DNA of 4,409 bases. Source: a virus. Taxonomy: Duplodnaviria; Heunggongvirae; Uroviricota; Caudoviricetes. This document shows, in pieces, positions 1-3,000 of the stretch (the first letter of the stretch is position 1; each line of letters starts with the position of its first letter). A program made the position numbers. The DNA lies in the IMG/VR virus record IMGVR_UViG_2671180755_000020; one strand, given 5' to 3'.

Positions 1-3000
1 TCAGGAGCATTTCTGATTAACGCCACCGTTAAGAATCCACCCTTCAACAGCTTCACGAAGGTATGATTTGGGGTGGGTTCTGACTGGCTTCGGAAATCCG
101 TGCCGTTTGGTATAGTTCCAGATTGTCTGACGTGATGAAACACCGAGCTTGTTCATCACTTCTTTCTCAGGAATCAGGCTGGTATCGGTCATCTTAATTC
201 TCCAGGCAAAAAGAAACCGCCATATAGCGGCTCTATCAGATATGAACAGGCCTCATCGAGTGTGAGGCGTTAGTCCTTGCGTAGCTCGCTGATTCTTCTG
301 TAAGTCTCTGGTGCTTTGTTTCCGTGTATCTTCATTTCAGACTTCAACAGAGCAACGAGGGAATCCCATTCGTTGAGGATTCCTTTGAATGCCGGAACGC
401 GCTTTGCAACCTTGTCGAATGAATCTCTGATTTCTGGAATCTGCTCAACAAGTGCAACGCATCGTCTGAAATCGGCTGCGTCATGTGGAGCACCGAAGCC
501 ATGACCATAGATATTCTTTTTCAGGCCACATGCGATTGAGGCAAGAGTTGCGCTACTGATGCCGACATCGCCAGTTGATTGCCATTTCAAAACCTTCATA
601 GCCAAATCTGACATTTCTTGTCTCCATAAAACAAAACTCGCCGTAGCGAGTTCAGATAAAAGAAATCCCCGCGAGTGCGAGGATTGTTAGTTGCGCTCTG
701 CTGCTGCCTTAGCCATTACCATATCCACACAATTTCACCAGACATGATTCTCGCAATCACTATCATCACCAAAGTGATAATCACAACTTTAACTGGCGGC
801 ATCATTCACCATCCTGCTGCGGTGCTGCTGGATATACTTTTCTCATCCAATGCGTGGCGTCATGAATAACGAACTGATATTCATCATCAGTAAACATCGA
901 GCCATCCCACTGTAGCCCGTCAAGAACACCTCTGGATGGAGAGAATACCCAGATATCGAAATCGTATTTCTCCGGCATTCGCTCACTACAGCTTATCCAA
1001 CCATCCGGAGTTACCGGAGAGTTGCCAGCCTTGCGCATGGCAATCTCCATGATTTCAACCATATCTCCTGGTGGAATTTTACAATGCTGACCAATATGCC
1101 TCTGCTGCCTGGCATATTCGAGGATGTGCTCCAGCTTGATACGATTAATCATGATTTATCTCCCTGAAGCATGGCTTCGCGGCAGTCGTTCCAGCCTTCA
1201 GCATAATCACTATACGCAAGAGGCCAACCGTTTCTGTATTCACGCGGCAACTTATCAGGCACTACCAGCGCTGGCGGCGCGGAGAATAGTGGTTTAGGTG
1301 ATATTTCCGCACGTTTTGCGTATGCTTCAACTGTGTCAGGGTTAAACAGGATTATGTTTTCACCGCATTCTCACGCTATCGGTTCTGCTTCCAGCGATGC
1401 CAGTGCAATTTCATAAGCACGGCGCTCAATATTGTCTCGAACGTCCAAGCTGCCTATGCGCTCTTTGATTTCTTTAATCAGTTCTTTGTCGGTAATAGTG
1501 GTCATGCCGCGTTTCCTTCTTTCTTATTAACAATTACACCGTCATATATTTCATTAAGGTGCCCTCTCAACTCCATGCGCCTTAATGCAGACAACATGTA
1601 ATCGCATTCACTTATTTCCAGTAAATGGCTTATCGTCAGGATTACCCCAACAGCAATTACCCTTGGGCCACCCATGTACTTTCCGTACTCTTCCGTTAAC
1701 AACGTGAAGTAATCCCCAGCCAGGTGGTAAATCCTCAATTGAAATAATTCCCGGCTCACTAATAAAGAATCGCCAGTCGCCCATTCCAAGAGACGGATTT
1801 TTACGAAAACGCTTTTTTCTATCTGCCAACAAGTCAGCACGAGAACATTTCGCCTCTATCAGGCATGATGCTGAATTTCTGAATCCCATAGCATCTGGCT
1901 GTTCTCCGGTACTGGTTACAGCTATAAAGCGGTCATGAAAACAAACCTTGAAACCGTTGCGCTTAAGGAACTTGTACGCAATCTGACAGAGTTCGCGGTG
2001 TGTTAACGCCATATCACTCTCCTTTGATGCGAATGCCAGCAAGCCAGTTTCTTATGCCGATATATTCAGCGTTCCTGAAACCGCTTTTTACATATATAAA
2101 TGGCAAGCGAAGATTGTGACCATTGACTGCCAGGTAGTCTTTACAACCCTGTTCGGTGAAACAGCAGGTAACGAATTCATCAATATCTTTCACAGCAACG
2201 CGCCGCCATTTTTCTGGTGGCTCTCGAAAGTTTTCATGAAGTAGCTCGAGACGACGACTATGGCGTTTATTGGCTTCATTGCCATCTTCGTCAACCCAGA
2301 CAATCCGGTCATGGTCATAATCAGCATCAACAGCGATTTCGCGCTTTTGATACACACAAAACATGGGATCTGACGTTATTCGATTGTCCTGTGTTCGAAT
2401 ATTTTCACCGATGATGCCAAACGAATCTGGTGCAGATTTTGTCTGCATCTCTTCGATACGTTCAGCCATCGCAGCACACTCTTCAAAGTTGCTTAATGCT
2501 TTTCGCTCCCATTCGGCGCATTGTTTTTCCAGTTCTGCTATGCGCTTACTTCCATCCGCGATTACTCCCTCGTAATATTCACGCTGCTCGTTGAGTTTTG
2601 ATTTTGCTGCTTCAAGCTCAACACGCAGCTTCCCAACCGTAAGCGCAATCCCCTCGTTCTCCTGGTCGCGGCGTTTGATGTATTGCTGGTTTCTTTCCCG
2701 TTCATCCAGCAGTTCCAGCACGGTAGCCGGGTTAGCCTCTGCTATGAATTCAGCGTTTGCATAAGCCTGAGCATCTGATTCAATCAGGCAGTTAACATGA
2801 CATTCCGCAATCACGCCACCGGGTTCTCCTTTCCATTTTTGGCAAACAAAAACTCCTGTTAAATTGCCGTGCTGGTTAACAGATGTATGCCCTACGATGT
2901 AGCTTCCTTTAGTTGCTTTTTCTGCCTTTTCACGCAGTGCCTGATAATTAATTTCGCTCACTTCGAACCTCTCTGTTTACTGATAAGCTCCAGATCCTCC

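Follow-up and report, generated by a model that had tools for sequence, protein, structure and literature searches.

A gene of 114 amino acids (aa) lies at positions 270-614, on the minus strand, of a 4,409-nucleotide (nt) stretch of tailed-phage DNA, IMG/VR record IMGVR_UViG_2671180755_000020 (hereafter the window). With a probability of roughly 0.65, this gene fills the last cargo slot before xis in an N-antiterminated early-left (pL) operon, a fixed and recombination-prone slot whose changing content is ordinary lambdoid mosaicism. The upstream border of the slot is a tandem terminator with a Shine-Dalgarno (SD) sequence (621-693), which would act as a barrier to unmodified RNA polymerase and also as a site of homologous recombination, so that unrelated genes end up behind it. 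The downstream border is the start of xis, where an AlpA-type module with its own terminator (204-233) has replaced an older P22-type xis; some dozen codons from the start of the old gene were left over, and these are what a sequence-only reading of the window had called a GC hairpin. Unmodified polymerase would halt at the tandem terminator and N-modified polymerase from pL would read through it; the 114-aa protein and Xis would be made together as delayed-early products, only in lytic growth upon infection or induction. The protein would then have an early target in some conserved component of host or phage, serving host takeover, counter-defence or nucleic-acid metabolism, and not the lysogen.

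The operon setting is provided by close relatives of the window. Positions 1-1200 are 100% identical to the Stx2-converting phages 1717, 2851 and Stx2a_F349, and the last of these matches the window at 99.9% as far as position 4244. In the Stx2a_F349 annotation all genes of this stretch lie on the minus strand, and genes of the same strand run on to exo, bet, gam, kil, cIII, ea10, N and then cI, with no opposite-strand gene between. The order along one strand is cI-N-...-gam-bet-exo-...-Ea22-...-DUF551-(terminators)-114-aa gene-(terminator)-xis, so that the 114-aa gene shares its orientation with an N gene next to cI and lies some 6.6 kb downstream of it, the layout of a lambda-type, N-antiterminated early-left operon. 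Because the minus-strand genes are unbroken from the window to N and cI, the window is, judging from gene order, the promoter-distal end of a pL operon of the Stx2 phage 1717/2851 type.

The open reading frame (ORF) is a genuine, widely conserved accessory phage early gene. It begins with an ATG at 614-612, ends with a stop at 272-270, and is preceded by GGAG at 625-622, 8 nt upstream of the ATG. Its product belongs to PHROG 1229 (E = 3e-51, residues 1-114 on profile positions 1-113 of 116), a profile that distant members of the family match too. Nearest among named proteins is HK022 gp32 ('N15 early protein homolog'), which is 97% identical and likewise encoded directly upstream of xis; the HK022 gene differs in lying behind a single type-B terminator and before another type of xis. 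An exhaustive HMMER search returned 2858 representative clusters (50% identity) at E ≤ 1e-3 and 659 at E ≤ 1e-10, and tblastn found homologues in 279 phage records, with hosts that include Vibrio, Salmonella, Yersinia (PY54), Mannheimia, Haemophilus (SuMu), Arthrobacter and Clavibacter. Of 5426 complete E. coli genomes, 962 carry the gene, at 1245 places. In a set of 80 IMG/VR loci chosen by protein identity (the close loci), the ORF is intact throughout, 55 distinct DNA sequences encoding 13 proteins, and the ratio of nonsynonymous to synonymous substitution rates is about 0.06, a value biased downward by the way the loci were picked.

The linker upstream of the gene

Terminators were sought with a pattern scan and by folding, with z-scores taken against shuffled sequences. 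Positions 1-1300 contain 5 terminator-like sites, compared with 0.7 ± 0.8 expected from shuffles. The features at and around the gene are as follows, in the direction of transcription.

621-693, minus strand: conserved tandem-terminator linker, found in lambdoid and P22-like phages before different cargo genes (megablast, side-by-side alignment)
685-664, minus strand: stem of the distal intrinsic terminator, with a U-tract at 663-655; −13.1 kcal/mol, z −6.6
653-634, minus strand: stem of the proximal intrinsic terminator, with a U-tract at 633-626; −11.9 kcal/mol, z −4.4
615-625, minus strand: SD sequence GGAG (625-622) and spacer, with the mosaic joint to alternative cargo between SD and ATG (comparison of loci L001, L002, L003, L006, L007 and L009)
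270-614, minus strand: the 114-aa cargo gene (PHROG 1229; HK022 gp32 homologue), encoding an all-alpha domain (ORF, profile, homologues, AlphaFold2)
238-269, minus strand: relic of the 5' end of a P22-type xis (codons ...S/R-L-T-L-D-E-A-C-S...), holding the inverted repeat 250-268, with the right-hand mosaic joint at 238-247 (alignment A5 against MG40 xis)
233-214, minus strand: stem of the intrinsic terminator of the AlpA-type xis module, with a U-tract to about 204; −10.5 kcal/mol, z −2.25
1-192, minus strand: xis, encoding a 63-aa AlpA/HTH_17-type excisionase; the leftward operon ends with it (PHROG 66, 'excisionase and transcriptional regulator', 1.9e-8)

The two tandem hairpins with U-tracts in front of the ribosome-binding site and the hairpin with a U-tract before xis, all three noticed in the sequence-only reading, hold up as intrinsic terminators: a stable GC-rich hairpin is followed by a U-tract on the transcribed strand at 685-664, at 653-634 and at 233-214. 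None of them has a plus-strand T-run, so they are predicted to act on leftward transcription only. The 114-aa gene starts 8 nt behind two strong predicted terminators.

This pair of terminators is not a private possession of the gene. In a megablast search of 1-720, segment 621-689 alone proved 95-100% identical in more than 200 phages without the 114-aa gene, among them Sf6, 933W-like Stx phages, CUS-3, ES18 and P22-like phages, and the linker of about 70 nt occurs in 2297 of the 5426 E. coli genomes. An identical tandem terminator followed by TGGAGA precedes three different genes, the break falling between SD and ATG: the 114-aa gene in the window and mEp234, a lambda-p35-like gene of 55-60 aa in HK022 (gp33) and HK140 (gp31), and a gene like Sf6 gene 19 and 933W L0063 in Sf6 and ST2-8624. 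In the P22-like phage MG40 the slot of the 114-aa gene is occupied by EaC. These occupants (P22 eaC, Sf6 gene 19/933W L0063, the HK022 gp33 and HK140 gp31 genes resembling the lambda orf lambdap35, and a 71-aa ORF of Sf101) share with the 114-aa gene the place in the operon and either the upstream terminator and SD or the same xis relic; they differ in being unrelated in sequence and 55-209 aa long, and hhalign gives a probability below 1% for relatedness of the cargo proteins to the 114-aa protein. The idea that the hairpins are insertion boundaries of the gene does not survive the counts, with the linker at 3335 places and the gene at 1245, nor the identity of the 3' 'hairpin', which is a fossil of the xis 5' end. 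The lesson for annotation is that a gene of a lambdoid early operon has not necessarily been inserted because hairpins stand on either side of it.

In all 80 close loci a terminator lies directly 5' of the SD, in four versions: the tandem pair (28 of 80), a single unrelated hairpin, GCCGCC..GGCGG-T7 (45 of 80), the proximal hairpin of the pair together with another distal one (4 loci), and a triple (2 loci). All four fold and bear U-tracts; point changes in the stems are wobble-compatible, and the alternative distal hairpins fall out of register in alignments of sequences otherwise 90% identical. Since a terminator is kept in every locus despite the four versions, it is the terminator at this spot that is conserved, often with its exact sequence. 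Blocks of homology end at 631/634, 668/669 or 689, and at 238-247 on the other side, marking the linker as a module boundary. The concept of 'boundary sequences' at lambdoid module junctions is reportedly found in the HK620 paper. Like those labelled bsq in the Sf6 record, the linker is short and conserved, lies amid unrelated DNA where one gene gives way to the next, and is what a preferred site of crossover would look like; it differs from Sf6 bsq2 and bsq3 in being a pair of intrinsic terminators as well, and is annotated as neither.

Scanning the window for the σ70 consensus revealed no minus-strand promoter in 1-1300 (614-1300 included) or elsewhere near the gene, and Rfam gave no match in 1-1300. 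The idea of a promoter within 655-800 that would use the hairpins as an attenuating leader consequently finds no candidate, and antiterminated read-through, the other alternative offered by the sequence-only reading, is favoured by analogy with lambda. Intra-operon terminators are common in P22-like phages and may stop transcription that is not antiterminated (PMC8022706). As in those and in the lambda tL type, the terminators of the window lie in intergenic gaps downstream of N, on the operon strand, and combine a GC-rich hairpin with a U-tract; they are distinguished by being tandem, by abutting the SD of the next gene and by a sequence conserved across many phages. A further strong terminator, AGGGAGCTACAGGCTCCTTTTTTATT, is present at 3257-3239 (minus strand), in the 98-nt gap between a 93-aa gene and a TraR/DksA-type gene. 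As it belongs to the same operon, terminators before genes are not special to the 114-aa ORF, and such elements appear to recur along the pL operon of the window.

The xis side of the slot and alternative readings

The GC hairpin at 250-268 does exist as an inverted repeat, but its fold is weak, with a 6-bp stem, no U-tract and −8.7 kcal/mol (z −2.8; 4 of 200 shuffles fold as well). A sequence identical to the repeat is found in MG40 inside a P22-type xis, whose start, ATGGAATCACACAGTCTCACACTCGATGAGGCCTGTGCATTTCTC, encodes MESHSLTLDEACAFL, and in alignment A5 window positions 269-238 correspond to codons 4-13 of that gene. As the repeat aligns to xis codons, it is a relic of coding sequence and poor evidence for an RNA element; a selected RNA stabiliser was considered and dropped in favour of the relic, the loop-only changes in one variant being too few to show structural selection. 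Longer relics are kept in other phages, to about codon 22 in HK022, mEp043 and L027, and with even the start codon (TAA-cc-ATG) in L077 and L024. Across the 80 loci the block of homology that holds the gene always ends at 238-247 on the xis side. Sf101 carries the same 19-nt repeat behind an unrelated gene, the 71-aa ORF mentioned above (L106, 1793-2008, minus strand); this ORF is unannotated, has a predicted transmembrane N-terminus and lies between a type-B terminator and the xis relic.

The Salmonella phage SPN9CC preserves the arrangement undisturbed, with the same tandem terminators, a 117-aa homologue (62% identity), TAA, 2 nt, an intact 116-aa P22-type xis and int, which argues that in the ancestral layout gene and xis were tightly coupled. 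The xis of SPN9CC (L108, 2154-2504) is without annotation in its record. The sequence-only reading had the gene standing alone, and in the window it does, 77 nt from xis, 101 nt from a 29-aa ORF and 187 nt from the DUF551 gene, whereas the upstream genes overlap one another; beyond this phage the isolation disappears, as the 2-nt spacing in SPN9CC shows. Terminator 233-214 accompanies window positions 1-238 in Sf101, HK140 and mEp234 whatever lies upstream, and so probably came with the new AlpA-type xis module; SPN9CC has no downstream terminator. In the lineage of the window, the comparison indicates, an AlpA-type int-xis module took over from the earlier one by way of a joint within the 5' end of the old xis. 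The xis ORF (1-192) matches Pfam AlpA and HTH_17 under the gathering score, and record AP012530 annotates it as AlpA family (1387-1578), with int at 228-1406. There the two genes lie on opposite strands, tail-to-tail, with a 20-bp overlap; int is thus outside the pL transcript, and a leftward transcript that continued beyond xis would be antisense to it.

Reassortment at the two borders is extensive. Among the 80 loci, 4 upstream and 4 downstream contexts occur in 13 combinations, the downstream types being the AlpA-type xis, the HK022-type xis, the SfX-type HTH_17 xis of mEp043 and a 66-aa PHROG-66 excisionase; the next gene is an excisionase in 77 of the 80. One downstream context had been taken for a tRNA-like attachment-site end, but ARAGORN found no tRNA and the next ORF is an excisionase. 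No empty slot was seen among the flank-sharing phages HK140, Sf101, Sf6, ST2-8624 and MG40, each of which carries another gene. A BLAST comparison of the xis junction, proposed earlier as a check, thus found the gene variably present at fixed joints, as expected, but also found linker and xis relic shared with other cargo and no empty junction. Conserved linker and xis 5' end supply homology for recombination, which explains why cargo and int-xis modules change hands precisely here. Such exchange at fixed joints is cleanly illustrated by the locus, whose two joints are SD/ATG and the xis 5' end; what is novel in the locus is confined to the uncharacterised protein family.

Morons have been described (Juhala et al. 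2000, as cited in passages of PMC4104026 and PMC2629481) as terminator-flanked extra DNA that is non-essential, varies in its presence and lies between conserved functions. The sequence-only reading took the place next to xis for a moron slot; variable content is borne out, with unrelated genes behind the same terminator and SD, but the slot was never seen empty and the hairpins are not insertion boundaries. A classical moron between xis and the ea genes would serve lysogenic conversion, exclusion or defence and be expressed autonomously: the prophage would transcribe it from a promoter belonging to the gene itself, and the hairpins would be attenuating leader and terminator. In keeping with this, the gene is variably present between conserved functions (962 of 5426 E. 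coli genomes), is flanked by terminators, reassorts independently of its flanks and is intact in many prophages. However, the σ70 consensus scan found no promoter of its own on the coding strand, it lies inside an operon, and its borders are shared linkers rather than insertion scars: upstream, the terminators form a generic linker that also precedes other genes, and the downstream 'bracket' is the xis relic plus the terminator of the xis module. The slot is always filled in the phages compared, the SPN9CC homologue is all but joined to xis, PADLOC yields no match, and homologues occur in early operons of non-integrating phages. Such a moron is unlikely, and a role in lysogenic conversion or exclusion is disfavoured by the missing promoter, the distal position in an N-dependent pL operon and the homologues in early regions of phages without Xis/Int.

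A second alternative starts from the neighbour. The protein could be an accessory factor of site-specific recombination or prophage induction, working with or regulating Xis/Int or the excised phage DNA, which would explain its upkeep directly upstream of xis. An excisionase of one of four types follows in 77 of 80 close loci, the spacing in SPN9CC is 2 nt, and homologues at 33-36% identity are the last gene before an excisionase-like ORF and integrase in L012, L014, L096 and Mannheimia phage 3927AP1. The adjacent excisionases, however, come from different families, which makes a specific partner unlikely; unrelated genes (EaC, Sf6 gene 19 and others) hold the same position; and xis simply lies at the end of the early operon. 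The family is also found with no integrase nearby: the telomere phage PY54 has it in the Q-dependent right arm, next to an exonuclease, a Mu-like prophage has it in its early region, and Vibrio podophages and Sashavirus Solent have it among arrays of small early genes; elsewhere it stands beside a helicase or before nucleases and terminase. What the homologues seem to have in common is an early operon, usually downstream of Erf/RecT-YqaJ-SSB, while linkage to Xis/Int is not universal; an accessory recombination factor is improbable. Bracketing by terminators, too, fails as a trait of the gene family: unrelated terminators stand on both sides of the 3927AP1 homologue and no flanking terminators were found in L012, L014, L096 and L099, so that bracketing is a feature of some lambdoid operons.

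Several considerations weigh against the reading of the gene as cargo of a fixed pL slot. Terminator strength, N-dependence and the timing of expression are carried over from lambda biology, and the promoter scan covers the σ70 consensus only. A role in excision could lie behind the strong positional link to xis, which is seen in 77 of 80 close loci, 3 of 8 distant ones and the Mannheimia phage, and a linker that is 95-100% conserved could have some task besides termination and recombination. As to the latter, the linker consists of a hairpin, a U-rich spacer, a terminator hairpin and poly-U, as in the 3' module of Hfq-binding small RNAs (sRNAs), and is better conserved than either flank. That 621-693 is primarily a regulatory RNA (an Hfq-type sRNA derived from a 3' untranslated region, or an element for mRNA stabilisation or processing), its place before the gene being secondary, is very unlikely: its identity across phages with unrelated flanks and its likeness to the Hfq-binding module cited in a passage of PMC4104026 speak for it, but there is no Rfam family match, 45 of 80 loci have a single unrelated terminator instead and the distal hairpin is replaceable, the σ70 consensus scan found no promoter that would feed it in the lysogen, the known prophage anti-sRNAs map elsewhere, to the PR' region, according to the part of PMC4104026 that deals with them, and a literature search found no published sequence matching the linker.

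The protein family

The AlphaFold2 model of the 114-aa protein, built from an 11-sequence alignment, has seven helices and high confidence (predicted local distance difference test 93.7, predicted template modelling score 0.87). In an alignment of 65 sequences reaching down to 28% identity, S20, P43, D45, D48, R51, C52 and W83 are invariant and W11, G18, S21 and P60 nearly so, giving the family motif G-x-S-S-x-T ... P-x-D-P-x-D-F-x-R-C ... P-E. In the model, S20-S21, P43-x-D45-x-x-D48-x-x-R51-C52 and W83 would form a polar constellation of a compact seven-helix domain.

The earlier statement that the protein resembles nothing characterised was borne out. Pfam and NCBIfam scans gave no match, PADLOC defence profiles gave none at E ≤ 0.1, and a Foldseek search of the model against the PDB was likewise negative; literature searches by PHROG identifier, protein sequence, phage names and lambdoid anti-defence work found no characterisation of the family. 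A structural search of BFVD recovered uncharacterised relatives only, from PY54, Clavibacter CN1A and uncultured phages, together with a Sylvanvirus model. This last match (A0A3G5AI15, Sylvanvirus sp., a giant virus; TM 0.70 normalised to the query, 20% identity, E 0.04) suggests either that the modelled domain extends beyond bacteriophages or that the giant-virus bin is contaminated.

Other leads were set aside. The vB_YenS_P840 transposon mutant 'ORF50' concerns a different gene, the domain being the C-terminus of P840 ORF48. Annotation as a lipoprotein in AP012530 finds no support, given the replacement of Cys29 with Leu or Val in homologues at 58-77% identity, a Ser, not Leu, Val or Ile, at the −3 position, and the model, which confidently folds residues 3-28 into two helices of the globular domain. 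The extensions of longer family members are diverse, and Pfam and PHROGs scans recognised no domains in them, the sole match being a fusion to a CCA-adding enzyme: in P0172 the domain follows a CCA-adding enzyme/HD module, which hints at an RNA- or tRNA-related role, although a single fusion is a weak lead. P0067 contains a tandem duplication of the domain, a hint of dimeric action.

An early host-directed or nucleic-acid-related function is favoured, with low confidence, because of the predicted timing, the breadth across temperate, transposable and telomere phages, the conserved polar site and the lack of a defence-family match. More specifically, PHROG 1229 may be a very widespread early-protein fold of phages of Proteobacteria and Actinobacteria, with the invariant residues as a ligand or partner site, and may represent a new counter-defence or host-takeover factor that, for example, sequesters a conserved host protein or a nucleotide-derived signal; this proposal is tentative and the odds are against it. 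The protein is a candidate only. As a large, confidently folded and unannotated family, without PDB neighbours and always in early regions, it is a reasonable target for anti-defence and host-takeover screens and for structure determination.

In many E. coli prophages the N- or C-terminal half of the gene is joined in frame to Ea22, Erf, Kil or a PF04447 pyrophosphohydrolase (proteins P0015, P0017, P0031, P0035, P0049, P0051, P0053 and P0225; phages phi419/P27, HK75 and mEp235 are listed with them), and other prophages keep short relics of the gene, either 269-318 alone or 446-642 alone. The pattern points to frequent recombination or deletion breakpoints inside the gene, probably most often near 446. 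The fusions to Erf, Ea22, Kil and PF04447 were dropped as functional clues, for they are near-identical to the window gene and hence products of recombination or deletion.

Neighbouring genes and minor observations

The remaining genes of the window, in minus-strand order and assigned by profile and ORF unless stated otherwise, are the following.

First in order, minus strand: exo, C-terminal part (YqaJ domain)
After exo, minus strand: DUF1382 gene
After the DUF1382 gene, minus strand: 93-aa gene (ORF assignment)
After the 93-aa gene, minus strand: TraR/DksA zinc-finger gene
After the TraR/DksA zinc-finger gene, minus strand: Ea22
After Ea22, minus strand: 144-aa gene, then small ORFs (ORF assignment)
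802-1152, minus strand: DUF551 gene

Homology to Stx2a_F349 ends at 4244, within exo, and the remaining stretch, 4245-4409, looks like the end of an IS3-family insertion element, with an ORF for a transposase C-terminus at 4287-4397; we take it to resemble the IS629 terminus. From the break inside exo and the IS3-like remainder it follows that exo of this phage is interrupted.

At 716-805 on the minus strand lies the strongly hydrophobic 29-aa ORF, MMPPVKVVIITLVMIVIARIMSGEIVWIW, whose ATG overlaps the DUF551 stop (ATGA), an arrangement that suggests translational coupling to DUF551 and a small membrane peptide. It has tblastn matches in just 10 close phage records and is without annotation in AP012530.

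A 44-aa ORF at 1371-1505 (minus strand) aligns only with the first ~48 positions of phrog_5117, 660 and 3323, profiles 90-190 positions long or more, and is followed by a gap and then by a 37-aa ORF at 1149-1262 (minus strand). The region 1149-1505 looks like a gene split by a stop or frameshift, or like a mosaic remnant.

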